64,000 nt of DNA from a virus (IMGVR_UViG_3300025924_000017:1-64000); one strand, 5' to 3'; shown: positions 46,556 through 62,364, counted from the stretch's first letter. Program-made: numbers and translations. Notes: generated by a model from the sequence alone, not told the origin.

Positions 46556-46685
46556 GTTTACCAACGCCGCGAATAGGTTAACGGGTGGGACTTTTGAGAT
46601 TGCGTCTCACTACGCGTTAACCAATGACGCGACTAGGTTAACGAGGCCCATCCGGGCCGTTTACCAAGGCGCGATCTGGGTTAAT
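46556..46685. repeat. three 27-bp palindromes (GTTAACCAAT-N7-ATTGGTTAAC family)
   Basis: Copies at 46556, 46616, 46659, right after the TerL stop. Confidence 0.8.
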
Positions 46686-46765
46686 GCCGCCGCCCAGCCG
46701 AAGGCGGCGAGCGCGATGGTGGCGACGGCGAGGAGCGGGGCGAGTTCGAGCAGCCGGATGGTCAT
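46661..46765 (-). CDS. possible small membrane peptide
   Basis: MTIRLLELAPLLAVATIALAAFGW.. Confidence 0.35.
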   Translation of the reverse strand: MTIRLLELAPLLAVATIALAAFGWAAALTQIAPW

Positions 46766-47176
46766 GACGCGATCTCTACCGCGCCTGTCCGCGTTCGTCA
46801 ACAGACTGCCGCGATCTGCGGCACCCGGGCACCACCGCGTCGCGATCCCGGACACCCATGTCATAGATCAGCGATTTCGTGACACATCGCCGAAATGCGC
46901 AACAAAAACAAGGCACTCTGCCATTCCTATGGCTGTGGCCCAAAAGTCATCCCGCAGTGCAGCATCAAGATGTTGTAGTTCCTGACAGTCTGTCAGCACA
47001 GGCCGACCGTCACGACACTCCTTGACAAAATCCTAGACCTGTGACCCGGCGATGTCACCTTTCCGGGCTTTCGTGACCTCGAAATGTCCGGATTTGGCCG
47101 GGAAATGTCCGGATTCGGCCCAAAATCCCCGTTTTCCGCCTCAAAATCCGGGCAAATCGTGTCCGGATACGTCCGG

Positions 47177-47392
47177 ATACCGTGCGCGAGCGCATTGTCC
47201 GGCTGGTCCTACCGCGCGCGAGATCGATCTCTACCGCGCGCAGGCGCATTTGGGCGCCCGGGCCTACCGTGCGCGCCTTCGTTGTCCGGCTGGCCCTACC
47301 GCGCGCAGAATCGTTCTCTACCGTGCGCGCTCGCGTTCTGTGGCGCGTCCTATCGTGCGCGATCTCATTGTCCGGCGCGCCCTACCGCGCGC
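47177..47392 (+). repeat. helically phased array of 8 CTACCGYGCGC motifs
   Basis: Starts 47177, 47209, 47231, 47264, 47296, 47318, 47350, 47382. Confidence 0.85.
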
Positions 47393-47429
47393 TGGCGCAT
47401 TAACCGGCGCGGGCACAACCTTAACGGCC

Positions 47430-47550
47430 GTTAACCTTTCGAGGTCATTGGTTAACGCCCGCCCGCCAGCCCGCTTGCGTTAACCAATTGCCGTCATTGG
47501 TTAACGGCCCTTCAGCGCCCGGCGTTAACCAATTGCCAGCATTGGTTACC
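47430..47550. repeat. three 27-bp palindromes
   Basis: Copies at 47430, 47479, 47524. Confidence 0.9.
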
Positions 47551-47564
47551 GGCCCCGGCGGCGG

Positions 47565-47870
47565 TCACAGACGGCGCACCGCGCCGTCCGCCCCGATCTC
47601 GAACCGGGTCGAAACCTTGGTGCGCTCGAAGAAAGTCCGCTGCCCAGCCAGAATCTCGGCATCCGTGCCGTGATCGACGTCGCCGGGGGCCGGGTCTATG
47701 ACGATATCGCGCCACGGGACCGGCTTGTCATTGTTCACCTTGCGGACTTCGCGCTTCACCGCCGCGCAGATGGCGCGCCAGCGCAGCCCGGGCGCGCAGC
47801 GGAACAGGGCCACGATAGGCCAGTCCGGAACGTTACCCGACAAGACCAGCAGATAGCGTTCCTTGGTCAT
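47565..47870 (-). CDS. hypothetical protein
   Basis: GGAGG RBS; MTKERYLL.. Confidence 0.65.
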   Translation of the reverse strand: MTKERYLLVLSGNVPDWPIVALFRCAPGLRWRAICAAVKREVRKVNNDKPVPWRDIVIDPAPGDVDHGTDAEILAGQRTFFERTKVSTRFEIGADGAVRRL

Positions 47871-48055
47871 TTGGCCTCCCATGTCGTGCAGGTTTCACCC
47901 TCCAGCGGTCCCACCGCCATGCGTTCGCGGTTGCCATAGCGCAGCGAGTAGGGCAGGCGTTCCGCAGGCCACGTACAGAGACCCAGCGCCTCCGCCGGGT
48001 CATCGTCCGGCGCGAAGTCCGGGTCGAACCATTTGCAGGTCCCGCAGGTCTTCAT
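47867..48055 (-). CDS. small Cys-rich protein
   Basis: MKTCGTCKWF..C..C. Confidence 0.65.
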   Translation of the reverse strand: MKTCGTCKWFDPDFAPDDDPAEALGLCTWPAERLPYSLRYGNRERMAVGPLEGETCTTWEAK

Positions 48056-48354
48056 GCCGTCACCGCCGCGCGTACGATCTCCAGATTACGCCCGGCGCGC
48101 TCGCAGGCGTCGGCGAGTTCCAGCGCCTTGACGCGGTCGCCCGCATCCCGGGCCGCCAGCGCGCGGCCTCCGAAGTCGCGCACCTGCCGGGTGAACGTGT
48201 CCAAGAGGAACGTTGCCAGCGGGTCGCGACTCCTGATCTCGACCGCCCGCTTATGCAGCGCGCGGCCGTGTTCCTCGGCTTGCGCCGCGAAGGCGTTTTC
48301 GACCGATGCCCGCAGGCGTGTGCCGAGGGTGCCTGTCATGCGCACGCGGGCCAC
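48052..48354 (-). CDS. hypothetical protein
   Basis: Overlap chain; start uncertain. Confidence 0.55.
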   Translation of the reverse strand: MARVRMTGTLGTRLRASVENAFAAQAEEHGRALHKRAVEIRSRDPLATFLLDTFTRQVRDFGGRALAARDAGDRVKALELADACERAGRNLEIVRAAVTA

Positions 48355-48572
48355 GCAGCGATGCGAGCCTCCTGCCGGGCCATCCGCGCGGCAGCACCCA
48401 CCACAAGCGCGGCGAGCGCGCCGGTCGGCGTGTGTCCGTTGCGGCGCAAACGTGCCACCGTGTTCAATAGCCCGGCGGTAGACCCGCGCGGGGTCTCGAC
48501 CGGCGCGTAATGGATCAGGCAGGCGTCTGCCGCCCCGTAGCGTGTGATGCTATCGCGTTTCCAGCGGGTCAT
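48336..48572 (-). CDS. hypothetical protein
   Basis: MTRWKRD.. Confidence 0.55.
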   Translation of the reverse strand: MTRWKRDSITRYGAADACLIHYAPVETPRGSTAGLLNTVARLRRNGHTPTGALAALVVGAAARMARQEARIAAWPACA

Positions 48573-48576
48573 GCGA

Positions 48577-48969
48577 TCACTGCCCCGGCGCGAGATAGAA
48601 CCGAATCCACTGCGCCACGACCGGGCCATTACCCTTGAAGCCGTCCTCGGACGCTTCCGCCACCCGGGCGATTTCGTCCCATGACTGGTCCGCGCCATCG
48701 GTCGCGAACTGAGCCGCCGCCTCGTGCACGTAATTCGACCCGTAACCGGTCAGCGGGTTTGCCAGAAACGCTCCGCAATTTTCGCAGTGCTGGGGCGTAT
48801 CCGCCTCACCGCCTCCGTAGGAGTAGGGGCCTTTTGGGAACGCATCCGACTCATAGGTGACTTCGTCCGCGATGTTGGCGGGCGCTTTGCCCTCGGCGGT
48901 CAGATCACGCCGGATGGCATTGCCGCAATCTTCACAGTAGAGCGCGGCCCGGTAGACAAAAGCTTTCAT
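48577..48969 (-). CDS. conserved phage early protein (YCEDC..DTPQHC..CG..L.NPLT)
   Basis: GGAGTCGCAAATG start. Confidence 0.75.
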   Translation of the reverse strand: MKAFVYRAALYCEDCGNAIRRDLTAEGKAPANIADEVTYESDAFPKGPYSYGGGEADTPQHCENCGAFLANPLTGYGSNYVHEAAAQFATDGADQSWDEIARVAEASEDGFKGNGPVVAQWIRFYLAPGQ

Positions 48970-49000
48970 TTGCGACTCCGTTGGTTCTTGATTGTGCGCC

Positions 49001-49063
49001 CTTGTAGCATGGAATTATTTTGTCTGTCAAGGGTTGACAGTTCAGATTTCGCCGTGCTAGAAC
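49001..49063. promoter_or_regulatory. back-to-back sigma70 promoter pair
   Basis: TGTCAA-GGG-TTGACA 49025-49039 with a -10 on each side. Confidence 0.8.
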
Positions 49064-49091
49064 AGCGTCACAACGAAAAACGGAGTCGCGA

Positions 49092-49301
49092 ATGAAACGG
49101 AAAGGTGTAACGGGTTTGAAACTGTGGCGCGCCCGCGTCCAGAAAGTCTACGCCTCGCTGGCCGAACTGCGGGCCTATGACGAGACGTTCGAGATCGTGA
49201 AGCGCTGCGGCTATCGCAACGCGGAATCGCTGTGGAACGCCAACCCCCTATTGCAGGGTTCGACCCACCCGGCGGATTTTGGAGTCGCAAATGCACACTG
49301 A
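49092..49301 (+). CDS. hypothetical protein
   Basis: GGAGTCGCGAATG start. Confidence 0.7.
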   Translation: MKRKGVTGLKLWRARVQKVYASLAELRAYDETFEIVKRCGYRNAESLWNANPLLQGSTHPADFGVANAH

Positions 49302-49491
49302 CGAATTCTGCAAGACCTTGGACGCCTTGGATCGCGCGGACGCGATCAAGGCCATTCACGCCGCTTTCCTCCAACTGAGCGCGATGGGCGTGCAGGTCGA
49401 AGTCAACGGCACGACCTATGACAATGAGCCCGCCATCTCGCGGCTGAAAGCCTGCATGGTCTCCGCCGGTCACATCGGGTTCACGTCATGA
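49291..49491 (+). CDS. hypothetical protein
   Basis: GGAGTCGCAAATG start. Confidence 0.7.
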   Translation: MHTDEFCKTLDALDRADAIKAIHAAFLQLSAMGVQVEVNGTTYDNEPAISRLKACMVSAGHIGFTS

Positions 49492-49790
49492 CGGCGCGCC
49501 GGGGCACACGCTCGATCCTGCCGAACAGCAACAGCGCCATCCTCGCGCCGATGGCTTACGGGCTACAAGTCCGCTGGCACGAAGAACTGGACTCGCATGT
49601 GCTCTACCACGGCGAGCAGCGCGTGGCGGGCCATCACAACGGCTTTTCCTGCCACGAACTCGCCAAGCGCATCCTGTCCGGCAATGCCGAACGCGCGACG
49701 GCGCAATTCGACTACATCACCGCGTGTGGCGGTCAGCATTACATCACACACGAAGCCTTCGCAACCATCCTCACAGGAGTCACACACTGA
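49488..49790 (+). CDS. hypothetical protein
   Basis: ATGA overlap. Confidence 0.65.
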   Translation: MTARRGTRSILPNSNSAILAPMAYGLQVRWHEELDSHVLYHGEQRVAGHHNGFSCHELAKRILSGNAERATAQFDYITACGGQHYITHEAFATILTGVTH

Positions 49791-49791
49791 C

Positions 49792-49917
49792 ATGCATACC
49801 CGGCACCACGGCCACGGCCATCACGGTGGCGCGGGCTTCGCGCTCCTCGCCTTCATCCCCGGCTATCGGTTTTTCCTGATGCTGATGGCCTTGATCGTGA
49901 TGTGCGGCGGGACGTGA
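49792..49917 (+). CDS. His-rich small membrane protein, paralog 1
   Basis: MHTRHHGHGHHGG..PGYRFFLM..CGGT. Confidence 0.65.
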   Translation: MHTRHHGHGHHGGAGFALLAFIPGYRFFLMLMALIVMCGGT

Positions 49918-49940
49918 TCCCACCGCCGTCCGGCACTTGC

Positions 49941-49967
49941 GTTAACTGTTCGCGGCGATTGGTAAAC
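49941..49967. repeat. 27-bp palindrome
   Basis: GTTAACTGTT-N7-ATTGGTAAAC. Confidence 0.8.
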
Positions 49968-50128
49968 GCGGGCGAACCGCCGGGCTCAGTCCTCCGGGTA
50001 TGTGGTGGCGCGCGCCGCCTTGTCCCACGAGTAGACATGGAACGCGCGATCAGTTGGGAGAATGAGCCTCATCAACTGGTAAGAGGCCTCAAGATCAATC
50101 GCGCGGGCCAATGCTTCGTATAGGGCTT

Positions 50129-50479
50129 TCATGCGGCGGCGCGCGCCTCGCGTACGACCTCAGCCCATAACGCCTTGCACTCGGCGCGATGCTTCGCCGC
50201 CGCCCCGGGCGTGAACTGGGATTCGAAACTGTCACAGCCCTTCATGAGTTTCCCCAACTGATTGTTGAGCGCGATGGACTCAAAAAGCCCGGTGGTTTTG
50301 TCGCCCGCATTGCGCATGCGGCCCGTGTAGACGATCCAGAGGAAGTCCACGCCCTCAGTTTTGTCATAGGCCGCTTGCCACGCTTCGGGCGTGCCAGCCT
50401 TCACGGCTTCCATGTGGAAGTGTGCGATGGTTTCCGCCAGCACACCCTCACCCAGCAAAAAATCGGCGTGGGACTTCAT
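50129..50479 (-). CDS. hypothetical protein
   Basis: ATGA overlap. Confidence 0.65.
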   Translation of the reverse strand: MKSHADFLLGEGVLAETIAHFHMEAVKAGTPEAWQAAYDKTEGVDFLWIVYTGRMRNAGDKTTGLFESIALNNQLGKLMKGCDSFESQFTPGAAAKHRAECKALWAEVVREARAAA

Positions 50480-50649
50480 GCGGCGGCCTTGTCATACTGG
50501 ATTTTGACGCCGAGACCCTTCGCCTCCCGGTACCACACCGGGTAGATCGAGACCGCTCCCCACGGTTTTGTCTCCGTGACCCAGTAGGTCCACTTCAAGC
50601 GCTCGCTCGGCAACCGCCGATAAGCACGCACCAGAAATTCCGATTTCAT
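50476..50649 (-). CDS. hypothetical protein
   Basis: GGAGTCGCAAATG start. Confidence 0.7.
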   Translation of the reverse strand: MKSEFLVRAYRRLPSERLKWTYWVTETKPWGAVSIYPVWYREAKGLGVKIQYDKAAA

Positions 50650-50679
50650 TTGCGACTCCGTGTGTGTTGTTGTGCCGGT

Positions 50680-50740
50680 CTTATCGCATAAAAGATTTTG
50701 TCCGTCAAGTGTTGACATTCACAAAGCGCCCGGCTATAAC
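50680..50740. promoter_or_regulatory. back-to-back sigma70 promoter pair
   Basis: CGTCAA-GTG-TTGACA; -10 GATAAG (-) and TATAAC (+). Confidence 0.8.
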
Positions 50741-50774
50741 CACGCCACAACAACGAACCAACACGGAGTCGCAA

Positions 50775-51281
50775 GTGAATCACGAACTCAGGATCAAATA
50801 CGGCACTAGCCGCGCCGCCAATACCTACGGTTACGGGCTTGTGAGCCTGTACGACGGCGGTAAGAAAGTCGCGGCCTGCAACGGCGGCGGTTACGACATG
50901 CGCGGGACGGTGTTCGGCGAATGGCTCGAAAAGACCTATCAGGAACGCCTCGTCGCGCTGGCGAAGGCAACCAAGGGCGCATTTGCGCGCGCCAACTGGA
51001 ACGGCGAACTGGGTGACGAGTCGAATTACGTCCGCCTCCCCGCTGATCGCAAGGTCGAGCTTTACGGCGGCACCTATTACGAGAACGGCAGCCGCGAGAG
51101 CGTTCACGGCCGCAAGGGTGCCCAGAAATACATCGCCAAGCCGCCGCATGTGACGTTGGATGGCGGTTGCGGGTTCGAGTCGATTTACCGGATCGCCAAG
51201 GCCATCGGCCTCAACGTCCGCACGGTTGACGCTGGGAAGAAACTCGACATCCTCCTGATCGAGGACACGAAACCCGGGTAA
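50775..51281 (+). CDS. conserved phage early protein
   Basis: GGAGTCGCAAGTG start; CNGGGYDMRGTVFG..LDGGCG. Confidence 0.75.
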   Translation: MNHELRIKYGTSRAANTYGYGLVSLYDGGKKVAACNGGGYDMRGTVFGEWLEKTYQERLVALAKATKGAFARANWNGELGDESNYVRLPADRKVELYGGTYYENGSRESVHGRKGAQKYIAKPPHVTLDGGCGFESIYRIAKAIGLNVRTVDAGKKLDILLIEDTKPG

Positions 51282-51368
51282 CAGTTGCGTCACGCCTGCG
51301 CCCTGCGTTCCCAAGACGCGCAGGCTTGACACTCCGGCGGATGCGCCCGCGAAGCCATCCGCAAGCCT

Positions 51369-51408
51369 GCCCCGGCGCTGGATCACTCCGGCGTCGGGGC
51401 TCTTTTTT
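51369..51408 (+). terminator. intrinsic terminator
   Basis: 14-bp stem with G-U pairs, then TCTTTTTT. Confidence 0.75.
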
Positions 51409-51416
51409 CTTGGGAT

Positions 51417-51443
51417 GTTAACCAGTCGCGTCGATTGGTAAAC
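51417..51443. repeat. 27-bp palindrome
   Basis: GTTAACCAGT-N7-ATTGGTAAAC. Confidence 0.85.
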
Positions 51444-51462
51444 GCGGGTGGCGCGGGCGCGC

Positions 51463-51846
51463 TCAGGTGATCTCGCGCCCGGTGTCGGCACACACGACCG
51501 GCTCATCTTCCTCCGCCATGCAACCGAGCGCCACGACGCGCCAGCCATCGCGCAGATTGAGCCGGACGGCTTCGAGCACGTCGCGCAGGTGTGCGCGGAC
51601 CGCCTCATAGCTCAATATCTCGCCGTCCGAGGTCATGAAGAAACACTCATAGCCGCCGGGCCAAGCGAACTTGCCCGCGCGCAGGGCCGACTTGACCTGC
51701 TGCATCCCTTTCAGGCCCAGAACGAAGTCGCGGCCGTGCACCGCGTAAGCCGCACGCAGCGGCGGCAGCTTGTTCCAGTCCGTGACCCGGGTGTCGTAGA
51801 GATCGCCGCCGGTCGCGACGAACAGGTGATCTGGCAGCTTGCTCAT
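51463..51846 (-). CDS. conserved phage early protein
   Basis: LRAGKFAWPGGY..FMTSDGE.LS motif. Confidence 0.7.
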   Translation of the reverse strand: MSKLPDHLFVATGGDLYDTRVTDWNKLPPLRAAYAVHGRDFVLGLKGMQQVKSALRAGKFAWPGGYECFFMTSDGEILSYEAVRAHLRDVLEAVRLNLRDGWRVVALGCMAEEDEPVVCADTGREIT

Positions 51847-52187
51847 AGCAGCACCGTGACCAGTGTCGGCGTGCGCGCTGAGTCCTCTTCCTTGCGGCTG
51901 TCGTAGGGCGTGCGGCCGAGCGCGAACGCCATGACGTCGAACTGTGGGCAATCGCGACCGCCGTTCTTGATGGTCCTGCCACTGTCATGGAAGCACACGT
52001 CCACGCAATCCGCCGGGCCGCCCTTGACATAGGGCTGGAACGCAAACGTCACGCGTTTGCCGTTGCTGAGCTTGGCGGTGATCGTATAGTTGCCATCCGG
52101 AACTTCCACGCACAGATGCGGGTTGGCGTTGAACCCGGCGAAACCCGCCGCGACCGCCTCGTCTTGGGATGCTTCCTTGAAATTCAT
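51843..52187 (-). CDS. hypothetical protein
   Basis: GGAGTCGCAAATG start. Confidence 0.72.
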   Translation of the reverse strand: MNFKEASQDEAVAAGFAGFNANPHLCVEVPDGNYTITAKLSNGKRVTFAFQPYVKGGPADCVDVCFHDSGRTIKNGGRDCPQFDVMAFALGRTPYDSRKEEDSARTPTLVTVLL

Positions 52188-52212
52188 TTGCGACTCCGTT
52201 TGTTGTGCGCCT

Positions 52213-52273
52213 CTTATAGCAGCAATTATTTTGTCCGTCAAGTGTTGACATTCAAAAATGTCCGGGCTATAAC
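52213..52273. promoter_or_regulatory. back-to-back sigma70 promoter pair
   Basis: ATTATTTTGTCCGTCAAGTGTTGACA; TATAAG (-), TATAAC (+). Confidence 0.85.
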
Positions 52274-52302
52274 GGCCGCAACAAACACAAACGGAGTCGC
52301 AA

Positions 52303-52731
52303 ATGGCAAAGCTTTCTGCAAACGGCCGCACGATTGTTGGCAGCATCGATTACATCGCCAGCACAAAGCGCGTCATGTCCGATGGCGTCATTCTGGAGAA
52401 CAAGGGCCACGGCTGGAAGGTCGCGGGCAAGGTGAAGCCGGGCTTCACACCCGAGCAGGCTTTCACGCAGGGCAAGGCCAAGCATGAAGCCACACTCGCC
52501 GCGCGTCCTGCGTTGGCGGCCTATCGCGCCGCCCTGCATGACGCCTGCGGGCTCGCCAAGCGCTGGGCGCTCCACACCGCGATCACCTTGATGCCGGACG
52601 ACCCGGATGGCGTGTGGTCGAACTGCGTGGACAGCTATCCCAAAGTCGATGCGGACCTCGATGACATCGTGAGGCTTTGCGGGCTCTACACCCGCGCCAA
52701 GGCAGAGAAGGAGGAGGCGGCGGTCGCGTAA
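52303..52731 (+). CDS. hypothetical protein
   Basis: GGAGTCGCAAATG start. Confidence 0.75.
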   Translation: MAKLSANGRTIVGSIDYIASTKRVMSDGVILENKGHGWKVAGKVKPGFTPEQAFTQGKAKHEATLAARPALAAYRAALHDACGLAKRWALHTAITLMPDDPDGVWSNCVDSYPKVDADLDDIVRLCGLYTRAKAEKEEAAVA

Positions 52732-52748
52732 GCGCCGCCAGCGCGCAC

Positions 52749-52775
52749 GTTTACCAATTGCGGAGATTGGTTACC
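52749..52775. repeat. 27-bp palindrome
   Basis: GTTTACCAAT-N7-ATTGGTTACC. Confidence 0.85.
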
Positions 52776-52817
52776 GCGCGGTATGCGGGCGCGGGGCTCC
52801 AAGCCGCGCCGGTTTGG

Positions 52818-53234
52818 TCAACAATCCGGATCGAAGTCGTGCCACTCCTGCACCTCGTCGGGCTGGCCGTCGTGCTCGTATTCGCCTTCGCCCTCCGGGG
52901 CCAGTAGGGTGGCATCCTGTTCCGGGTCCACGCCAATCTCATGATCGACCGGAAAGCCGCATGAGAAGCCGGACTCGAAGTCCACGCGGATGCAGTGTGC
53001 GCCCTCGTACTCGACTTTCTCGACGGTCTCGAACTCGAACTGGAATTCGGGATGCTCGCTCTTCAGTTGCGGGCTCTCCTCCTTGTTCTCGCACGCGTCG
53101 AAATAAGCTTCGTCGGCGAACCGATCCGCTTCAAGGTCGCAACGCTGGCCGACGCGCAACTGATTCACCCGGCACTTGACGACGCCTTGCCGCTCGACCG
53201 TGTTGACCGTGTTCGATCCGTCGCCCCGGCTCAT
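52818..53234 (-). CDS. acidic hypothetical protein
   Basis: ATGA overlap; ends DGQPDEVQEWHDFDPDC. Confidence 0.7.
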   Translation of the reverse strand: MSRGDGSNTVNTVERQGVVKCRVNQLRVGQRCDLEADRFADEAYFDACENKEESPQLKSEHPEFQFEFETVEKVEYEGAHCIRVDFESGFSCGFPVDHEIGVDPEQDATLLAPEGEGEYEHDGQPDEVQEWHDFDPDC

Positions 53235-53491
53235 TGCACGACCTCCGACGCATCGACAAACACCCAATGGTGCGTTGCCTCAAAGCGAAACAGCGAACGC
53301 GGCTTTTCCGCCAGCGTGCGCAGGTCGCCCTCGGCGAGCATGTCCGGCGTGGCGGTGACCACAAGACACGGCCCCTGACCGCCCGGCACGGACTTGACCG
53401 GCGTTCCCGCCGGGATCGTGAGATCGTAGCCGAATTGCGGCGCGGAACTACCCGGCACCCAGCGCTTCGTGATCGTTTCCTTGATCTGCAT
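53231..53491 (-). CDS. hypothetical protein
   Basis: GGAGTCGCAAATG start. Confidence 0.72.
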   Translation of the reverse strand: MQIKETITKRWVPGSSAPQFGYDLTIPAGTPVKSVPGGQGPCLVVTATPDMLAEGDLRTLAEKPRSLFRFEATHHWVFVDASEVVQ

Positions 53492-53523
53492 TTGCGACTC
53501 CGTTTTTCGTTTTCAGTGACGCC

Positions 53524-53584: not shown

Positions 53585-53590
53585 TATGCA

Positions 53591-53714: not shown

Positions 53715-53724
53715 GGAGTCGCAA

Positions 53725-53967: not shown

Positions 53968-53968
53968 T

Positions 53969-55784: not shown

Positions 55785-55823
55785 GGCGACCGGCGCGGGA
55801 GATTGCGACTCTCCCCGCGCCGT
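55785..55823 (+). terminator. GC-rich hairpin with TTGCGAC loop
   Basis: 39 bp identical to 56976-57014; follows the stop codon. Confidence 0.65.
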
Positions 55824-55835
55824 GTTCGCGACCGC

Positions 55836-55862
55836 CTTAACCAATTGCGGCGACTGGTTAAT
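55836..55862. repeat. 27-bp palindrome
   Basis: CTTAACCAAT-N7-ACTGGTTAAT. Confidence 0.8.
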
Positions 55863-55972
55863 ACGAGGCTGGAAACAGACGGCGGATCGCAAGTCCGGAT
55901 GCGCCCCGGAAGTTCCGGGCTGGTGGGCTGTCTCCCACGAGGTGCACCTTACAACCGCCGTCTCAACTGATG
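55863..55972 (-). ncRNA. candidate multi-branched small RNA
   Basis: Own leftward promoter, no RBS or ORF; 9-bp closing stem 55877-55885/55955-55963 enclosing three hairpins. Confidence 0.5.
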
Positions 55973-55977
55973 CACAC

Positions 55978-56038
55978 ACCCTAGCGCAGGAAAGCTTTAT
56001 TGTCAACCCTTGACAGACGAAATAATCCCCGCTATAAG
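55978..56038. promoter_or_regulatory. back-to-back sigma70 promoter pair, inverted orientation
   Basis: 56001-56026 is the reverse complement of 49014-49039 (25/26). Confidence 0.8.
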
Positions 56039-56063
56039 AGCGCCACAACCAACGGAGTCGCAA

Positions 56064-56756
56064 ATGTCCGAACACATCGCACACACCGAGCACGACGAGG
56101 AAACCGGCGTCACGCTCAAAATCATCAACGATCCGCATGGCAGCGAGTCGCCCCTCGAACACGATAGCGCGGTGATCTTCGCGGTCCTGCACCGGCGGTA
56201 CATCAACCCGGCGAAAGACGCGGCTGCGTACAAGCGCAACGGCGACTCTTACGACTTCACCACGGTCGAAGGCATTGCGGAATTCGAGAAGGCGAACGGC
56301 GCGATCAACGCGCAGTGGGCCGTGTTCCCGTTGTTCATGTACGATCATTCGGGCACGATCTACAGCGCCAGTTCCGGAGCCAATCCGTTCCACTGTCCAT
56401 GGGACTCGGGCCGCGTCGGTATTATCGCGCTTAAGAAGAGCGAAGTCGGTAAGCCCGGCAAGAAAGTCCGCAACGCCAAGCGCGAAGTGGTCTACACCGT
56501 AGGCAGCTATCTGGAACAGGCGCAAGCCGTCGCCAAGAACTACACCGACTGGGCCAACGGCAACATTTGGGGCTATGTGGTCGAAGACGCGGACGGCGAG
56601 CACATCGACTCGTGTTGGGGCTTCATCGGCGATCACGACGACGAACACCTGATGGCAGAAGCCCACAGCGCCTATCACGACGCGATCAAGGACGCGAACG
56701 CGGCGAACGCCCGCGACCTCGAAGCCGACCGCGCCGATATGTATGCGGGGGCGTGA
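56064..56756 (+). CDS. conserved phage early protein
   Basis: PLFMYDHSG..CPWDSGRVG..W.NG.IWGY..DSCWGFIG; GGAGTCGCAAATG start. Confidence 0.78.
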   Translation: MSEHIAHTEHDEETGVTLKIINDPHGSESPLEHDSAVIFAVLHRRYINPAKDAAAYKRNGDSYDFTTVEGIAEFEKANGAINAQWAVFPLFMYDHSGTIYSASSGANPFHCPWDSGRVGIIALKKSEVGKPGKKVRNAKREVVYTVGSYLEQAQAVAKNYTDWANGNIWGYVVEDADGEHIDSCWGFIGDHDDEHLMAEAHSAYHDAIKDANAANARDLEADRADMYAGA

Positions 56757-56965
56757 TGGCGAAGCCACGGCGGCAGACGCTATGGAGCTACACGGTCGCG
56801 GCGACGGGCCAGACTATCGAGCCCGTCAACCTCTACCTGCTTCCCGGCGTGCGCTACGCCCTGCGCGCGCTTCACGGCGCGGACGGCTTCAGCGAGCGCC
56901 TCTTAGGTCAAGGCCGCCTCATGAGTGACGGCACTGTGACCGACCTGATACCGCCGCCGGGTTGA
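56756..56965 (+). CDS. hypothetical protein
   Basis: TGATG coupling. Confidence 0.6.
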   Translation: MAKPRRQTLWSYTVAATGQTIEPVNLYLLPGVRYALRALHGADGFSERLLGQGRLMSDGTVTDLIPPPG

Positions 56966-56975
56966 CCGGCGACGT

Positions 56976-57014
56976 GGCGACCGGCGCGGGAGATTGCGAC
57001 TCTCCCCGCGCCGT
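56976..57014 (+). terminator. GC-rich hairpin with TTGCGAC loop
   Basis: Identical to 55785-55823. Confidence 0.65.
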
Positions 57015-57028
57015 TTCGCTTAAGAGGC

Positions 57029-57055
57029 CTTAACCAATTGGCGTGATCGGTTAAC
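57029..57055. repeat. 27-bp palindrome
   Basis: CTTAACCAAT-N7-ATCGGTTAAC. Confidence 0.8.
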
Positions 57056-57056
57056 G

Positions 57057-57117
57057 TTGATAGCGCGGATTATTTTGTCCGTCAAGTGTTGACAATCAAA
57101 AATCTCTGTGCGATAAG
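57057..57117. promoter_or_regulatory. back-to-back promoter pair; left arm has no gene
   Basis: 26-mer identical to 52225-52250. Confidence 0.8.
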
Positions 57118-57141
57118 ACGCCCACAAACACGGAGTCGCAA

Positions 57142-57375
57142 ATGAAGCCGATCACGAGAATAGCAACGTTCGACGGAAAAGAGCACCGCGATGCACTCGC
57201 AGCAGAGCGCCACCTAGACGAGGAATTCGGTCGGCGCGTGTCGGCGCTCGGTCACAAGTTCGCGCCTGCGGGTGTGAAGTACAGCGAGTTCCACAAGCTG
57301 GTCGAGGAGAACCTGCACGTGTTCGCAGAGCTTCTCCGGATCAAGGCCGACTTGAAAATCGAGGAGGAGGATTGA
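57142..57375 (+). CDS. hypothetical protein
   Basis: GGAGTCGCAAATG start. Confidence 0.72.
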   Translation: MKPITRIATFDGKEHRDALAAERHLDEEFGRRVSALGHKFAPAGVKYSEFHKLVEENLHVFAELLRIKADLKIEEED

Positions 57376-57588
57376 ATGGCGCACGAATGGAAGCGCTGCG
57401 GACTCCTGCGGTTTGACTCCGGGGTCCGCACGGTGTGGAAAAGACCGCGCGATGATCGAGAATCGGGGTTTGTGTTCCAGTCCACACGCAACCCCGATAT
57501 TGAACCCGCCCCCGGCTGCGGCGGGTATTACGACGCGCACGGCATGGCGAGGTCCGCCGGTGGGCGGTTGGAATTGACAGAGGATTGA
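57376..57588 (+). CDS. hypothetical protein
   Basis: GGAGG RBS. Confidence 0.6.
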   Translation: MAHEWKRCGLLRFDSGVRTVWKRPRDDRESGFVFQSTRNPDIEPAPGCGGYYDAHGMARSAGGRLELTED

Positions 57589-57603
57589 GGGCCGATCAGG
57601 TCC

Positions 57604-57640
57604 CGCGCCCGCCGCCGATTGCGACCCGGCGGCGGGCGCG
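57604..57640 (+). terminator. perfect 14-bp hairpin with ATTGCGACC loop
   Basis: CGCGCCCGCCGCCG / CGGCGGCGGGCGCG. Confidence 0.65.
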
Positions 57641-57654
57641 TTTGCGTTGGTCGC

Positions 57655-57681
57655 GTTAACCAGTCACCGCAATTGGTAAAC
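57655..57681. repeat. 27-bp palindrome
   Basis: GTTAACCAGT-N7-ATTGGTAAAC. Confidence 0.85.
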
Positions 57682-57693
57682 GCGCGCGCCGCC

Positions 57694-57840
57694 CTACCTC
57701 GGCGCGATCTCACCCAGCCGCTTGAGCCAGCCCTGCGTGTTGAACCACGCGCACACGGTTGGCATGAACCAAAGGCGCGAGCTTTGGCCGCTGTTCTGAA
57801 ATGCGGCTTCCCACATGATCGCCTGACCGAGGTGCTTCAT
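57694..57840 (-). CDS. hypothetical protein (48 aa)
   Basis: ATGA overlap; hand translation MKHLGQAIMW.. Confidence 0.5.
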   Translation of the reverse strand: MKHLGQAIMWEAAFQNSGQSSRLWFMPTVCAWFNTQGWLKRLGEIAPR

Positions 57841-58175
57841 GCAACCACCCCGGCCAGAATTCCATCCGCCAGCGCCGCACGCTTTGCGCGCATCGTGTGC
57901 GCCGGATCGTGGTCCGAAATGTAGGCCGCGAAGTAGCGCTCGTCGAACTTGAAAAAGCCAAGCCGCACGTCGGCCGTGGTCGCCTCGCAGATGGCGAAGC
58001 CCACGCTCGTGTAGTGCATCGGCGGCAGCATTTCGAGAAAGTACCAGTAGGTTTCCTCGTCTACTTCCACAAACCCGGCGAGCAGCCGGGCGCGGTCGAA
58101 GCGCTGGGCATGCGGAAGCTCCGGATTGAGCCAGCCGTAAAACCCGTCCTTATCGAATTTGCCTTCGAACTTCAT
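57837..58175 (-). CDS. DUF1419-like protein
   Basis: EVDEETYWYFLEMLPP..FAICE; GGAGTCGCAAATG start. Confidence 0.65.
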   Translation of the reverse strand: MKFEGKFDKDGFYGWLNPELPHAQRFDRARLLAGFVEVDEETYWYFLEMLPPMHYTSVGFAICEATTADVRLGFFKFDERYFAAYISDHDPAHTMRAKRAALADGILAGVVA

Positions 58176-58201
58176 TTGCGACTCCGTTTGTTTGCAGGCA
58201 C

Positions 58202-58263
58202 CTTATCGCATAAAACATTTTGTCTGTCAACAGTTGACAATTCAAATTCTGCCGTGCTATAGA
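58202..58263. promoter_or_regulatory. back-to-back sigma70 promoter pair
   Basis: TGTCAA-CAG-TTGACA 58225-58239. Confidence 0.78.
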
Positions 58264-58291
58264 GGCGGCACAAACAGAAACGGAGTCGCAA

Positions 58292-58684
58292 ATGAAGTAT
58301 GCAGTCAATGAACAAGGGCAGGTCACCTGCGACGGCGAGCCTATGCTCGTACTCGCGCAGGCCGTTTGGGGCGATGGTGCGCCGAGCGCCGCCGCCCGGG
58401 ATGTTGCCCAGCAGCGCGCCAAAGACGCTTTCAAGGCGCTGGAGTTGATCGAACGCCTCGCCCGCATGGGTTTTTACGCCTACCCGGACGGCGAAAGCTT
58501 TTCCGACGCGCAGGCCGAAGACGCGCTGGTCGTGCTCAACCAGATGATCGAGAACGCGCGCAAGCTTGCCCCGGATGCAGTCCCCGGCCCATATATCACG
58601 ACCGGGCACGACCTCGACGGCGACGGGCCTTGGTATGCGCCGGGCATCGGCGAAGTCGAAGCCCCGCAGGAGGATCAGCCATGA
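58292..58684 (+). CDS. hypothetical protein
   Basis: GGAGTCGCAAATG start. Confidence 0.72.
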   Translation: MKYAVNEQGQVTCDGEPMLVLAQAVWGDGAPSAAARDVAQQRAKDAFKALELIERLARMGFYAYPDGESFSDAQAEDALVVLNQMIENARKLAPDAVPGPYITTGHDLDGDGPWYAPGIGEVEAPQEDQP

Positions 58685-58749
58685 TCTAGCACGACGGCGA
58701 AGTCCTCGACCTCGGTTTGCGTTCCACAGCGGAACGCCGACCGGGCTGA
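58681..58749 (+). pseudogene. relic paralog of 59271..59429
   Basis: ATG ATC TAG CAC GAC GGC GAA GTC CTC versus ATG CCC TAC CAT GAC GGC GAA GTC CTC. Confidence 0.55.
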
Positions 58750-58753
58750 GGCC

Positions 58754-58780
58754 CTTAACCAATTACCGCAACCGGTTAAC
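58754..58780. repeat. 27-bp palindrome
   Basis: CTTAACCAAT-N7-ACCGGTTAAC. Confidence 0.8.
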
Positions 58781-58829
58781 GCCCGCGACGAGAGAGGGCA
58801 GCGCGGCCTTACGACCGCGCTGGACCTCC

Positions 58830-58994
58830 TCACTCCATTTCCTCTGCCCCATCCTGCACCGTGTGCGCGGTAATGTCGTAACGCTCTAGTTGCGCGTTCA
58901 CGGCATCCATTGCAGCACCGACGCCGGTCTCTGCTTCGCTCCTTGAGTCCGCCGCGATCACGAACGCGACCGTAACAATGAACTGTTTTCCCAT
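58830..58994 (-). CDS. hypothetical protein (54 aa)
   Basis: GGAGTCGCAAATG start; hand translation MGKQFIVTV.. Confidence 0.68.
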   Translation of the reverse strand: MGKQFIVTVAFVIAADSRSEAETGVGAAMDAVNAQLERYDITAHTVQDGAEEME

Positions 58995-59026
58995 TTGCGA
59001 CTCCGTTGTTTGTTTTCAGTACGGTT

Positions 59027-59088
59027 GGTATAGCACGACGGATTCTAAAATGTCAACACTTGACGGACAGAATAATTTGTGCGATAAG
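59027..59088. promoter_or_regulatory. back-to-back promoter pair, inverted orientation
   Basis: 59051-59076 is the reverse complement of 52225-52250 (25/26). Confidence 0.8.
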
Positions 59089-59116
59089 GTTCGCACAACA
59101 ACCAACGGAGTCGCAA

Positions 59117-59284
59117 ATGAAGTATGATTTTCGGACAGCCGACAACGCCGCTAAGCCCCACGTCGCTGTTGTGGAAGTGGAGAGCGGCGAGACGGCTGCA
59201 ATTGTCTACATCAAAGACGGGAAAGTTGATGACGCTGAACGTCTGGCCGAGCTTTGCGTGGGGGTGTTCAATGCCCTACCATGA
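59117..59284 (+). CDS. hypothetical protein
   Basis: GGAGTCGCAAATG start. Confidence 0.7.
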   Translation: MKYDFRTADNAAKPHVAVVEVESGETAAIVYIKDGKVDDAERLAELCVGVFNALP

Positions 59285-59429
59285 CGGCGAAGTCCTCGGC
59301 CTCGACGCTGACGGTTGTGTGATCCAGTGGGACGCCGACCGGGGCGCGGCCTACAATTCCGGCGAGACGCTGGAAGAGTTCGGCGCGGACAATCTGCGCG
59401 CCCACGAACGCGGGAGGCTGGGCCTATGA
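59271..59429 (+). CDS. small acidic protein
   Basis: MPYHDGEVLG.. Confidence 0.6.
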   Translation: MPYHDGEVLGLDADGCVIQWDADRGAAYNSGETLEEFGADNLRAHERGRLGL

Positions 59430-59632
59430 GCAGTTGGATTTATCGCGTCGAGCTAAACGCACGCAAGGCCGGGGACATCGGCACGTTCACGCGCTGCACG
59501 TTCGATGTTATCGCCGAGCAGGCGCGCGGCGCGGATGGAGCGTACACCCGGGCCATCGCAAAGGCCACCGCGCACGGCTACGAAACACGCGGCGCAAATA
59601 GCGCTGTGCGTATGAGCGAGGTACACGCATGA
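59426..59632 (+). CDS. hypothetical protein
   Basis: GGAGG RBS, ATGA overlap. Confidence 0.62.
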   Translation: MSSWIYRVELNARKAGDIGTFTRCTFDVIAEQARGADGAYTRAIAKATAHGYETRGANSAVRMSEVHA

Positions 59633-59805
59633 GCGAAGACGCGATCAGCGGCAAAGACATCCGCGAGTTCCGGCTCTACTTGAAGCAATGCACCGACCGG
59701 CAGGTTGAGGGCGTGTTCGAGCGTGAGAAGGCCGCAGGCCGGGAGACGTATATGGAACTTGCCCGCGCCGAGGCCGAGCACCGGGGCATTACCATCTGGG
59801 GCTGA
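59629..59805 (+). CDS. hypothetical protein
   Basis: GAGG RBS, ATGA overlap. Confidence 0.58.
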   Translation: MSEDAISGKDIREFRLYLKQCTDRQVEGVFEREKAAGRETYMELARAEAEHRGITIWG

Positions 59806-59907
59806 CCACCATGTCATAAAATCCCCCAACTGTGACATGCCGAGTCAACGATTCCAACAGCTTAGGCCCTGCCTGTCACGTTTCACGAAACCTAGGAAAG
59901 GAAACCC

Positions 59908-60048
59908 ATGCATTCAGGCCATCACCGCCACCACGGCGGACATCATGGCGGGCACCACCTCGGCGCGCTCGCCTTCCTCGCCCTGCTTCCCGGCTATCGC
60001 TTCTTTTTGATGCTCGCCTTAGTCGTGGTCCTGTGCGGCGGCACCTGA
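59908..60048 (+). CDS. His-rich small membrane protein, paralog 2
   Basis: AAGGA RBS; MHSGHHRHHGGHHGGHH..PGYRFFLM..CGGT. Confidence 0.68.
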   Translation: MHSGHHRHHGGHHGGHHLGALAFLALLPGYRFFLMLALVVVLCGGT

Positions 60049-60093
60049 TACTGTCATTCAAGGGTTGACAATTGACCCCGGCCGTGCGATAAG
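60045..60093 (+). promoter_or_regulatory. sigma70-type promoter
   Basis: TTGACA 60065-60070; GC-GATAAG. Confidence 0.7.
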
Positions 60094-60141
60094 CCTTGCA
60101 ACGTCGGGATGACCCGGCGACAATCCAAACCGGAGTCGCAA

Positions 60142-60738
60142 ATGGCAAAAGAACAGTTCGCATTGCTCGCCGTGAATGAAACGGACAATTGGGACCAGTC
60201 CATTCTGGACAAGCACGGCTTTGAAGCCGCGTTCGGCGTCTACTTGATCCGCCTCGGCGAGGCCACGCATTGTTGCAGCCTCACCGCGTCAACGTGGGCC
60301 GAGTTTTACGAGAACGCCTTCATTTACGATCACGAAGACGCGGCGGCCGACAAAGCGGCGGAAGACCTCGCCCACGAGAACGGCGGCGAGTTCGGGCGCT
60401 ATCTCACCTACGTCGATCCTGACCAGAAGAGCCGCTACCTCGGCGCGGCGATCACGGTCGAAGTGGACGCGGATGAATTCGAAGGCGGCAAGAAATCCGA
60501 CGCCTATCACGAGGCAATCTGGACGGAAGCCCGCGAGGCCGCAGCCACCGGCGCGATCAGCGAACCGGCGATCCTGTGGAGCGAGGAATACTACGCCCAG
60601 CAGGAAGAGTACGCCGCCAAGCGACGCGCAGAGAACCGCAGGCCCTTGGCGCGCCCGATCCTGCCGTTGTTCTTCGCCGCCGCCCAGCGCGACGGATTCG
60701 CCACGTACGAAGGCGCAATCGAGCACGGCTGGCTTTGA
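60142..60738 (+). CDS. acidic hypothetical protein
   Basis: GGAGTCGCAAATG start. Confidence 0.75.
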   Translation: MAKEQFALLAVNETDNWDQSILDKHGFEAAFGVYLIRLGEATHCCSLTASTWAEFYENAFIYDHEDAAADKAAEDLAHENGGEFGRYLTYVDPDQKSRYLGAAITVEVDADEFEGGKKSDAYHEAIWTEAREAAATGAISEPAILWSEEYYAQQEEYAAKRRAENRRPLARPILPLFFAAAQRDGFATYEGAIEHGWL

Positions 60739-60824
60739 TCCTGCGCGTGCCCTGCCACGGGCCACGCAGTACACCGGCCCGGCGCTGCCTGTCACGGCAC
60801 GCCGGGCCGGAGCATTTTGGGCGC

Positions 60825-60873
60825 ATTATTTTGTCCTAAAGGTGTTGACAATTGGATTCCGCCCGGCTATAAC
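60825..60873 (+). promoter_or_regulatory. sigma70-type promoter with no conventional gene downstream
   Basis: ATTATTTTGTCC; TTGACA 60845-60850; GC-TATAAC. Confidence 0.75.
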
Positions 60874-61001
60874 ACCGCCATGCCTCGCGGCGACAGAGCA
60901 GGACCTCTGGAAGGCGCGGCGCGAAGTCCTCCCGGGAAAGCCCGCCAGACGCGGGATCGCAGGGAGGCCGGGACACGCGGACCCGCCGATCTGCGCCGAG
61001 C

Positions 61002-61076
61002 CTACCTTGCGCGATATCGTGCGCTACCGTGCGCACTACCTTGCGCGCTACCGTTCGCTGGCACGATCTGGGGCGC
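61002..61076 (+). repeat. CTACC tandem cluster
   Basis: 5 units; 61024-61076 matches 62233-62285 at 50/53. Confidence 0.8.
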
Positions 61077-61103
61077 GCGCCGTCCGGCGCGGCCTGTGCC
61101 CGC

Positions 61104-61174
61104 GTTTACCAGTTGGAAGGATTGGTTAACGCCGCCTCGGAGTCCGCGTTAACCAATTGCGGCTATTGGTTAAG
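61104..61174. repeat. two 27-bp palindromes
   Basis: Copies at 61104 and 61148. Confidence 0.85.
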
Positions 61175-61238
61175 ACCATCGCAAATTTTGTTAACCATAG
61201 GGCGTGCCGATCTGGCACGCCCACGATCTGCCGCGTGG

Positions 61239-61691
61239 CTAGGCGCTCTCCTCCTTTCGAGCCTTGACGCGCACGTAGGGCTTCTCCTCGTAGTGATCGA
61301 TCTTCTCGCCGGAGGGAAGGTCCCACGGCATGAGCATGAAGGTCACGCCAAAGGGATGGAATTCCGCGTTCTGGGGCGACAGGTTTTCAGCCTTCATGTA
61401 ACTGGCGATGTACCAGTCGCGCGCGTCACCCTCGAACGTGAAGCAGGTCTTGTTGGAGCGCAGACGATACGCAGGCAACGCGCCCACCAGATAGATGGCA
61501 TGATCCGTATAGGTGTCACCAGCCTTGAACTGCCCACGGCGCACGCCGTCCATCTCTGCCGTGTAGGTGTTCGTGCGATCATACTCCGCACCTTCGTAAG
61601 TCACACCACTGATCGTGACGGACACGGGCTTGATGTTGGAGAGATGGCCGAGGGATGCGAGGTAGGCCACGACGTTTGCGGAAACAGACAT
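61239..61691 (-). CDS. hypothetical protein
   Basis: GGAGTCGCAAATG start. Confidence 0.75.
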   Translation of the reverse strand: MSVSANVVAYLASLGHLSNIKPVSVTISGVTYEGAEYDRTNTYTAEMDGVRRGQFKAGDTYTDHAIYLVGALPAYRLRSNKTCFTFEGDARDWYIASYMKAENLSPQNAEFHPFGVTFMLMPWDLPSGEKIDHYEEKPYVRVKARKEESA

Positions 61692-61715
61692 TTGCGACTC
61701 CGTTGTTGTGCGCAC

Positions 61716-61776
61716 TTTATGGCATGCCTTGTTTTGTCTGTCAAGGGTTGACATATAGAATTCTTCGCGCTATAAC
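61716..61776. promoter_or_regulatory. back-to-back sigma70 promoter pair
   Basis: TGTCAA-GGG-TTGACA 61739-61753; CATAAA (-), TATAAC (+). Confidence 0.8.
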
Positions 61777-61802
61777 GGCAGCACAAACAAACGGAGTCGC
61801 AA

Positions 61803-62198
61803 ATGATCTCACACGCAGACGTTCTCAAAATCGACCGCGCCATCTCCGGCAAGCTGGTCGAGCTTGCCATCGCCAAAGGCTACAGCCTGACCGTCCGCAC
61901 GAACGACGACGACGCGCACAACGTCATCAAGTCGCGCGATCCGAAGGTGATCCTCGACGAACTTCATTCCGTGGACGACGAGCGCCTCTATGTGCACGAT
62001 GCAAACGGAAAGCGCCTCGGCTGGATTTACTTCGTGTTCGGCGAATCCGGCTGGGACGTGATCTGCGATCACACCACAGGCCGGGCGATCACGGAACTGG
62101 TGGACACAGGCCCGATCAAGGCGATCTCGGATGGTATCTGCGAGAACCCGGAGAACTGGAGCGCGATACTCGCGCAGAACGGCGCGGCAGTCGGCTGA
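61803..62198 (+). CDS. conserved phage early protein
   Basis: GGAGTCGCAAATG start; GYSLTV..DDERLY..GWIYFVFG..DVICDH. Confidence 0.75.
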   Translation: MISHADVLKIDRAISGKLVELAIAKGYSLTVRTNDDDAHNVIKSRDPKVILDELHSVDDERLYVHDANGKRLGWIYFVFGESGWDVICDHTTGRAITELVDTGPIKAISDGICENPENWSAILAQNGAAVG

Positions 62199-62200
62199 GC

Positions 62201-62285
62201 CTACGGCGCGCTACCGTTCGCTGGCGCGCTTCCTACCGTGCGCGCTACCTTGCGCTCTACCGTTCGCTGGCGCGATCTGGGGCGC
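62201..62285 (+). repeat. CTACC tandem cluster
   Basis: Units at 62201, 62211, 62233, 62245, 62257. Confidence 0.8.
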
Positions 62286-62337
62286 TGGCGCGCGCCAGCC
62301 CGGCGGCGGCGGTATGGTTAACGAAAATCGCCCCGGC

Positions 62338-62364
62338 GTTAACCAATTCAGTGTATTGGTTAAC
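62338..62364. repeat. 27-bp palindrome
   Basis: GTTAACCAAT-N7-ATTGGTTAAC, perfect arms. Confidence 0.9.

Follow-up and report, generated by a model that had tools for sequence, protein, structure and literature searches.

CtrA boxes, sites of the form TTAA-N7-TTAA that are bound by the host regulator CtrA, concentrate in the long terminal repeats of phages related to phiCbK, and clusters of them are also described for other alphaproteobacterial phages that depend on a pilus or flagellum; two promoters of phiCbK, those of gp005 and gp018, are bound and activated by CtrA (Mascolo et al. 2022, PMC9437464). The direct terminal repeat of phiCbK (10.3 kb) begins inside the terminase gene TerL, and that of Colossus (16.7 kb) begins just downstream of TerL (PMC3556154). 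Repeated sites of other kinds are also known. Stoperators of the Cluster A mycobacteriophages L5 and Bxb1 are dispersed in dozens of copies in short intergenic spaces, and the protein bound to them halts elongating RNA polymerase (PMC9283540, PMC6550527). The PeSL cassettes of T4-type phages have repeated motifs that bracket small, fast-changing early genes and are probable joints for modular shuffling (PMC2839356, PMC4122927). Tyrosine-recombinase sites, such as loxP/Cre, which cyclizes the terminally redundant DNA of P1, dif/XerCD (PMC2731167), and integron attC at cassette 3' ends, are built of inverted arms around a short spacer. Here, we describe a 27-bp dyad, GTTAACCAAT-N7-ATTGGTTAAC, in a 64,000-nucleotide stretch of viral DNA (IMGVR_UViG_3300025924_000017:1-64000). 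This stretch, the window, is the initial 64 kb of a virus record that is 225,611 bp long and rated complete, and the scans were extended to the full genome. Because its TerL (43805..46540, + strand, 911 aa) shows 51-53% identity over 98% of its length to TerL of phiCbK, Rogue, Magneto, Bajun, and others by tblastn, and a portal gene follows downstream, at 66459, the genome is on this comparison that of an uncultured phiCbK-like jumbo phage (Dolichocephalovirinae). Among these relatives, phiCbK, Rogue, and Magneto are Caulobacter phages and Bajun is a Brevundimonas phage.

The initial annotation had listed 17 copies of the dyad. Each of these coordinates holds a copy, as seen both by a mismatch scan and by a symmetric weight matrix that was derived from all 17 and run over the 225,611-bp genome; 16 copies are strong and one is weak, all within 46,556-62,364. 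With no more than 3 mismatches allowed in the 20 specified bases, 15 of the 17 were recovered (0 expected from 100 shuffles), and the dyads at 49941 and 46659 have 4 and 5 mismatches, respectively. The whole-genome motif scan, which the initial annotation had proposed as a check, separated the known sites cleanly from the background: 16 dyads scored 29.5-43.1 bits and the dyad at 46659 scored 18.8 bits, and the best non-member in the genome reached 8.5 bits (63695). Neither scan found a copy beyond 46.5-62.4 kb, and the absence claimed for 1-46.5 kb thus holds and extends to the whole 225.6-kb genome. The 10-7-10 geometry, described as invariant, was confirmed in 17/17 copies, and in most of them a flanking C/G lengthens the dyad to 11-12 bp per arm. 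Isolated half-sites are absent, as all 8 exact occurrences of TTAACCAAT in the window are dyad arms. A resemblance of the spacers to TGC(C/G)G had also been proposed; this bias is real but partial, being present in six copies in one orientation and in two in the other and missing from the rest, and the spacers of the 17 dyads are all different. When collections of viruses, metagenomes, and genomes were scanned for exact and degenerate dyads, the matches were, beyond a related viral contig (L064, described below), only lone sites in AT-rich or unrelated contigs, which correspond to chance. A search for related loci via the TerL C terminus recovered just distant terminases from ~40-kb phages, and literature searches on the motif itself gave nothing relevant.

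The placement of the dyads relative to genes was evaluated using our own codon-based gene calls. The dyad zone starts 16 bp after the TerL stop codon and spans 15.8 kb, and all 17 copies are intergenic, which gives many copies of one site in the intergenic DNA of transcribed regions, as seen for stoperators. Dyads are present at all nine convergent junctions of the zone (TerL end, 49.9, 51.4, 52.7, 54.2, 57.6, 58.7, 61.1, and 62.3 kb) and at none of its nine divergent junctions (convergent versus divergent, p about 2e-5). Elsewhere in the genome, the remaining 12 convergent junctions lack a dyad (0/12), and the junction at 64676-64902, just outside the zone, harbors a canonical bidirectional intrinsic terminator in its place. 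The claim that the copies from 49.9 kb on sit at module boundaries, mostly convergent ones, was therefore borne out, with only the dyads at 55836 and 57029 lying between co-directional units. Both of these face a promoter block that also has a leftward -35 element, and the internal promoters at 60065 and 60845, whose leftward half is decayed, have no dyad, suggesting that a dyad occurs wherever opposing transcription should meet. In addition, the two dyad triplets bracket a 740-bp repeat-rich non-coding stretch 3' of TerL. Because a dyad is found at every meeting point of opposing early transcription, a boundary or roadblock that acts symmetrically on early transcription converging from both sides best fits the anatomy among the functions listed initially, which were a roadblock or insulator, a DNA entry or protection signal, and a relaxed recombination site. 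This is the explanation we favor, although tentatively and at somewhat less than even confidence. The sites are as follows; none is assigned to a strand.

46556..46685, first triplet (dyads at 46556, 46616, and 46659; 29.5, 32.8, and 18.8 bits), directly 3' of TerL; L064 has a dyad at the equivalent place.
46686..47429, repeat-rich stretch of ~740 bp with no convincing gene; CTACCGYGCGC repeats at 47178-47423 and AAATGTCCGGAT repeats.
47430..47550, second triplet (dyads at 47430, 47479, and 47524; 33.3, 43.1, and 36.2 bits), with a period of 45-49 bp; the first leftward early operon (47565-48969) has its 3' end here.
49941..49967, dyad (30.4 bits) at a convergent junction, where genes end at 49917 (+) and 49986 (-).
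51417..51443, dyad (37.2 bits) at a convergent junction, preceded by an intrinsic terminator (51369-51410) that is the only strong one in the array.
52749..52775, dyad (36.7 bits) at a convergent junction.
54244..54270, dyad (38.5 bits) at a convergent junction.
55836..55862, dyad (35.9 bits) between co-directional units; a GC hairpin precedes it, and the next promoter block lies 147 bp further 3'.
57029..57055, dyad (35.2 bits) between co-directional units, 33 bp 5' of the -35 element of the next promoter and overlying the predicted start of the leftward promoter in the next block.
57655..57681, dyad (39.2 bits) at a convergent junction.
58754..58780, dyad (35.5 bits) at a convergent junction.
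61012..61174, CTACCGYGCGC repeats (61012-61088), then dyads at 61104 and 61148 (30.7 and 41.3 bits), at a convergent junction.
62206..62374, CTACCGYGCGC repeats (62206-62285), the last dyad (62338-62364; 38.0 bits), and a TTAA-N7-TTAA box (62360-62374).
63695..63721, possible decayed copy (8.5 bits), retaining the outer GTTTACC and GGTAAAT in the 27-bp frame.

A location at 3' ends could also point to an element that acts in the RNA, as a bidirectional terminator or a 3' stabilizer hairpin in both converging transcripts, and the palindrome would yield an identical hairpin on both strands; moreover, a canonical terminator is present at only one junction. However, the arms do not behave as a conserved stem. 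Across the 17 copies, 84.5% of the cells are paired versus 85.5% with the partners shuffled, just 1 cell is altered on both sides as a compensatory change, and one pair position is unpaired in 8 of the 17. The dyad hairpin averages -8.7 kcal/mol, with an AU-rich stem and 1.9 mismatches per ten pairs, compared with -27 to -34 for GC hairpins a few bases away, and in two of eight folds it was not the best structure. No U tract follows the dyads, whose flanks are GC-rich. The dyad thus lacks both features of an intrinsic terminator, namely a stable GC hairpin with a U tract and a pairing kept by compensatory change. In L064, the arm sequence itself is conserved beyond its pairing, and in phage C2 the dyads come after true terminators. 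An RNA-level element is consequently the explanation we find highly improbable. REP/RAYT-type mobility was separately considered and is disfavored by the lack of hairpin conservation. Since the sequence is kept without pairing, the spacing is fixed, the half-sites are always paired, and the hairpins are weak, we infer that the dyad is a double-stranded site for a two-fold symmetric DNA-binding protein and not an RNA terminator. The earlier proposal of sites for a dimeric protein is therefore favored by sequence logic (independent half-sites, fixed spacing, weak hairpins, and arms conserved across diverged phages), with the binding itself and a block of transcription by the bound protein both presumed.

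Next, the dyad was compared among relatives. The contig L064 is 11 kb long, encodes a TerL 67% identical to that of the present phage, and carries cassette genes that are mostly different. It has nine dyads with arms GTTAACCAGT/ATTGGTTAAC in the same frame and with a different spacer, CGGCGCT, and their layout is the same, with one dyad 3' of TerL, a triplet at a 46-bp period by homologous genes, and then cassette-end dyads. The initial annotation had named a lack of positional conservation as evidence against a function; L064 keeps its dyads at the same layout. The bare frame GTTAACC-N13-GGTTAAC was then searched in nine cultured relatives. In phiCbK, Rogue, BL57, CcrSC, CcrBL9, and C2, all frame matches but one weak one lie inside the terminal repeat, which in these six was taken from the annotation or from exact duplicates at both record ends. 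The terminal repeats of the relatives measure 10-25 kb. In Bajun and Marchewka, for which no repeat is annotated, frame matches occur just 3' of TerL, with a second set ~10 kb further on in Bajun and three weak matches ~35 kb further on in Marchewka, and Colossus has no frame match. Because the dyad zone starts after TerL, where the relatives carry their repeats, and the frame is nearly confined to those repeats, the zone at 46.5-62.4 kb would appear to be the terminal repeat of the present phage.

Caulobacter phage C2 (MZ574430.2:1-27000) exhibits the element in another arrangement. Its annotated repeat is 24,810 bp long, and about 17 of the 20 larger intergenic gaps have a TTAACC-type dyad. 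The order in the gaps is an intrinsic terminator, a dyad TTAACCYTAAC-N6-GTTARGGTTAA with an extra TTAAC, and a promoter. Since this dyad follows an intrinsic terminator, it is distinct from the terminator, but C2 alone cannot tie it to the gene end versus the promoter. In the present phage, a long distance separates the promoters from the gene ends, and it is the latter that the dyad accompanies. Taken together, these arrangements suggest that the dyad is a boundary element located in the least transcribed DNA between units and that it serves neither as the operator of a promoter nor as the terminator. It was also observed that the inner half-sites of the C2 dyad make a near-canonical CtrA box.

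The candidate binders are a host CtrA-type factor, given the TTAACC half-site, or a phage protein. The arm TTAACCAA(T) agrees with the CtrA half-site TTAACCAT in 7 of 8 bases and with the SciP chromatin immunoprecipitation consensus (G/A)TTAACCAT(A/G) in 8 of 10 (PMC4083442, PMC6180460), and the dyads of Bajun and Marchewka contain both TTAACCAT and GTTAACCAT exactly. The dyads might accordingly be half-site pairs for CtrA, or for CtrA and SciP, that have no boundary role, sense or titrate the host regulator, as proposed for the CtrA-box clusters ("lytic deferment"), and lie at gene ends only because spare DNA is available there. The concentration of boxes in phiCbK-like terminal repeats and the activation of gp005 and gp018 (PMC9437464) are consistent with this, as is the single TTAA-N7-TTAA of the 225.6-kb genome, whose first TTAA is shared with the right arm of the last dyad. 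Furthermore, in genomes of the host order, promoter sites that share the arm and the 27-bp frame are conserved 5' of parC, an EAL gene, an MCP gene, and fliI. However, the spacing of a CtrA box is not found in the dyads, where the TTAA start-to-start distance is 21 bp in 11 copies and not 11 bp, and the half-sites are inverted. The promoter location of such boxes, near or over the -35 element, is not found either, as the dyads lie at 3' ends and outside the nine divergent promoter regions. The inner arm is not constant even where phages share a host, and the frame is missing from Colossus, which fits a phage-specific reader better than an invariant host protein. In five host-order genomes, GTTAACCAAT is unenriched, with 1-4 copies as in the control, and the GTTAAC pairs of host genomes have many different spacings, of which the present one is not clearly preferred among the subset listed. 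The strict link to convergent junctions would also be left unexplained. Hence, a role limited to sensing CtrA seems rather unlikely to us. The CtrA resemblance noted at the outset is an apt lead, as TTAAC-type elements are a published hallmark of phiCbK-like repeats (PMC9437464), but the box geometry and the promoter setting do not carry over to the dyads.

Regarding the host sites, one with the arm GTTAACCAAT and a 27-bp GTTAAC frame was observed between parC and a divergent extensin-like gene (L274:2979-3005 and L275:3034-3060, genomes G213 and G073), and it recurs in at least 10 genomes of the sampled order, which contains an Algimonas metagenome-assembled genome. Because GTTAACCAAT is unenriched and the GTTAAC pairs have many spacings, sites of this type are a lead only. 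The dyads could, finally, combine both roles and form a protein-dependent bidirectional boundary read by CtrA, with or without SciP, in which case the insulation of the cassettes would depend on the cell cycle state of the host. We hold this combination to be distinctly doubtful. If true, it would tie the balance of sense and antisense early RNA to the cell cycle and provide a second, promoter-independent coupling to CtrA.

The arms and spacers were also compared with recombination sites. Core sites of tyrosine recombinases have inverted arms of 9-13 bp and a spacer of 6-8 bp, and the 10(11)-7-10(11) geometry of the dyad, seen in 17/17 copies, is that of a loxP, dif, or att core. The genome encodes two tyrosine recombinases with a Phage_integrase domain, one of 248 aa (144178-144924, - strand) and one of 393 aa (167427-168608, + strand), both 80-105 kb from the dyads. 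The former is a catalytic-core-only enzyme of the phiCbK gp143 type, which all phiCbK-like phages retain and for which no target is known (PMC3556154); a PHROG search with it gave no DNA-binding family. The latter is absent from the cultured relatives, and its best match is in Xylella phage Xfas53 (35% identity). Either enzyme might use the dyads as core sites for shuffling or inverting cassettes, or for joining the copies of the terminal repeat to circularize or resolve genomes. Such a role would suit the confinement of the sites to the predicted terminal repeat and the cassette genes common to this phage and L064, which are reordered, one of them being inverted. Yet 17 different spacers would defeat canonical exchange, which depends on a shared spacer, and in L064 three identical-spacer dyads in direct order, two of them only 92 bp apart, persist undeleted, weakening the earlier suggestion of a relaxed recombination site. 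Colossus has the small enzyme without the frame. The gene shuffling relative to L064 can be explained by ordinary homologous exchange between repeated blocks of promoter and dyad, as for PeSLs (PMC2839356). A specific likeness to XerCD/dif was rejected, since the conserved inner part of the dif arm differs. Overall, we judge recombination by either enzyme to be quite unlikely.

The dyads also flank DNA that may lie near a genome end, and TTAACC dyads with adjacent short repeats could be recognized by the terminase or an end-handling protein as packaging signals that set or duplicate the repeat. Tandem 12-bp CTACCGYGCGC repeats are present at 47178-47423, 61012-61088, and 62206-62285, each adjoining dyads, and this combined unit thus recurs at 47.2, 61.0, and 62.2 kb; the repeat blocks are candidates for terminal-repeat boundary or packaging modules. 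By its position, the stretch at 46686..47429 corresponds to the repeat-rich DNA with which the terminal repeats of phiCbK and Colossus begin (PMC3556154). Dyad clusters lie right 3' of TerL in every relative having them, the post-TerL motif set of Bajun is repeated ~9.9 kb downstream, and the terminal repeat of phiCbK contains a GTTAACCAT at 14-22 bp from its mapped right boundary (PMC3556154). Nevertheless, a signal of this kind leaves one dyad per cassette end over 15 kb unexplained, and sites throughout the repeat would invite wrong cuts, so we consider packaging very unlikely as the function of the dyads. Three further observations concern these regions. In phiCbK (L009:10260-10287), GTTAACCAT and GGGACCC motifs are located within 40 bp inside the experimentally mapped right repeat boundary. 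At the left end of phiCbK, GGGGACCC repeats and TTAACC clusters also follow TerL. In the present phage, an orphan promoter at 60845-60872, without leader or gene, points into the 61.0-kb CTACCGYGCGC copy.

Returning to the boundary for converging transcription, the dyads would represent a standardized version of the TTAAC(C) elements with which phiCbK-like phages pack their long terminal repeats. Strong host-type promoters would send opposing streams of early transcription toward the dyads, where a bound dimer would form a symmetric boundary (roadblock or insulator) that halts RNA polymerase from either side. Each cassette would in this way be kept a separate unit, and antisense read-through would be limited. 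Such a roadblock would explain most of the anatomy, including the symmetry, the single element per meeting point, the triplets that would shield the non-coding DNA close to the predicted end of the genome, and the ordinary terminator outside the zone.

Several results weigh against this explanation. No binding protein for the dyad was found: no DNA-binding family matched among the 33 cassette proteins (Pfam on 30; PHROGs on nine, three of them extra), and the phage genome encodes no CtrA-like or OmpR-type domain and no SciP-like (DUF1153) domain. Several junctions also hold GC hairpins that possibly terminate transcription on their own, and therefore the dyad could merely occupy the least transcribed DNA for another purpose. 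The dyads, moreover, flank non-coding repeats close to where the genome is predicted to end, a position suggestive of a role in packaging or at the ends, and the missing compensatory change could result in part from recent copying among the sites. Resolvase and ParB domains were likewise not found in the phage genome. We also observed that the conserved zinc-ribbon protein of the first cassette (48577-48969) belongs to a widespread viral family without known function.

As compared with the CtrA-box clusters of the same subfamily, the dyads share TTAA/TTAAC elements confined to intergenic early terminal-repeat DNA, a half-site resembling TTAACCAT, and a high turnover between relatives, whereas the published sites are promoter TTAA-N7-TTAA boxes (PMC9437464) and those described here are inverted 27-bp dyads at gene ends, with the TTAA elements 21 bp apart. 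In addition, the promoters of the present phage are plain -35/-10 promoters without boxes. Stoperators resemble the dyads in their dispersal through short intergenic spaces, but they are asymmetric sites of 13-14 bp, bound by a monomeric repressor, oriented with transcription, and distributed genome-wide, including a promoter operator (PMC9283540, PMC6550527). The dyad, in contrast, is symmetric, 27 bp long, and restricted to one 16-kb region, with no copy at a promoter, and no repressor for it was identified among the cassette proteins. The PeSL cassettes are similar in their repeated motifs around small early genes; however, a PeSL unites a terminator hairpin with a promoter and works at the level of RNA and promoter, whereas here the promoter block and the dyad are at opposite ends of the unit (PMC2839356, PMC4122927). 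The dyad is also not a stable hairpin, although C2 does show a composite order of terminator, dyad, and promoter. Sites of tyrosine recombinases share the inverted 10-11-bp arms, the 7-bp spacer, a recombinase gene located elsewhere, and a position at cassette 3' ends inside the terminal redundancy; they differ in that the spacers here all differ, identical-spacer copies are stable in L064, and the arms are unlike dif, and no recombination product was seen in this comparison. The clustering of TTAA-type elements and CtrA boxes in these terminal repeats is already published (PMC9437464). We found no description of an inverted 27-bp dyad of this kind, of its being placed strictly where convergent genes end, of the lack of CtrA boxes at the promoters of this lineage, or of a 27-bp frame that throughout the subfamily is almost limited to terminal repeats.

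The cassettes between the dyads have a uniform organization.

48967..64000, no strand assigned, standardized early cassette array, which continues to genome position 64450, past the end of the window.

Each divergent gap is ~120 bp long and contains back-to-back promoters with TTGACGG or TTGACA, a spacing of 16-17 nt, and GCTATAA. By this pattern, the cassette promoters are predicted to be strong, host-type promoters of the sigma-70 type, and they match the Caulobacter housekeeping promoter consensus. On each side of the gap there is a fixed leader that ends in GGAGTCGCAAATG. The region from 48.9 to 64.5 kb contains 20 of the 23 promoter-pattern matches and 25 of the 26 leader matches of the genome, and the cassette genes are small and nearly all orphans by Pfam and PHROG. 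The leader end GGAGTCGCAAATG includes GAGTC, a CcrM-type GANTC site, at every early gene start. The GC hairpins at 55795-55826, 56980-57010, and 57601-57640, just upstream of three dyads, have loops that read TTGCGAC. This is complementary to GTCGCAA, which is located between the ribosome-binding site and the start codon of the standard leader, and the complementarity could be due to 3'-5' pairing or be a relic of an inverted leader. Upstream of the dyad zone, a small terminase is encoded at 42913-43557 (PHROG 11494). At 911 aa, TerL is exactly as long as the precursors with an intein that are annotated for phiCbK and its relatives; therefore, TerL of the present phage probably also carries an intein.

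The phiCbK-like phages are the main model for how phages read the Caulobacter cell cycle. Since the TTAACC dyads stay with the gene ends where promoters are separate, at least part of the TTAAC signature of these repeats may reflect a boundary or DNA-handling function rather than promoter control. If a dimeric roadblock protein is found, the dyad would be a compact, symmetric, protein-dependent terminator or insulator, of interest for phage regulation and as a part for synthetic biology. Furthermore, the dyad provides a marker in the sequence by which the terminal repeat can be predicted when genomes of the subfamily are recovered from metagenomes.

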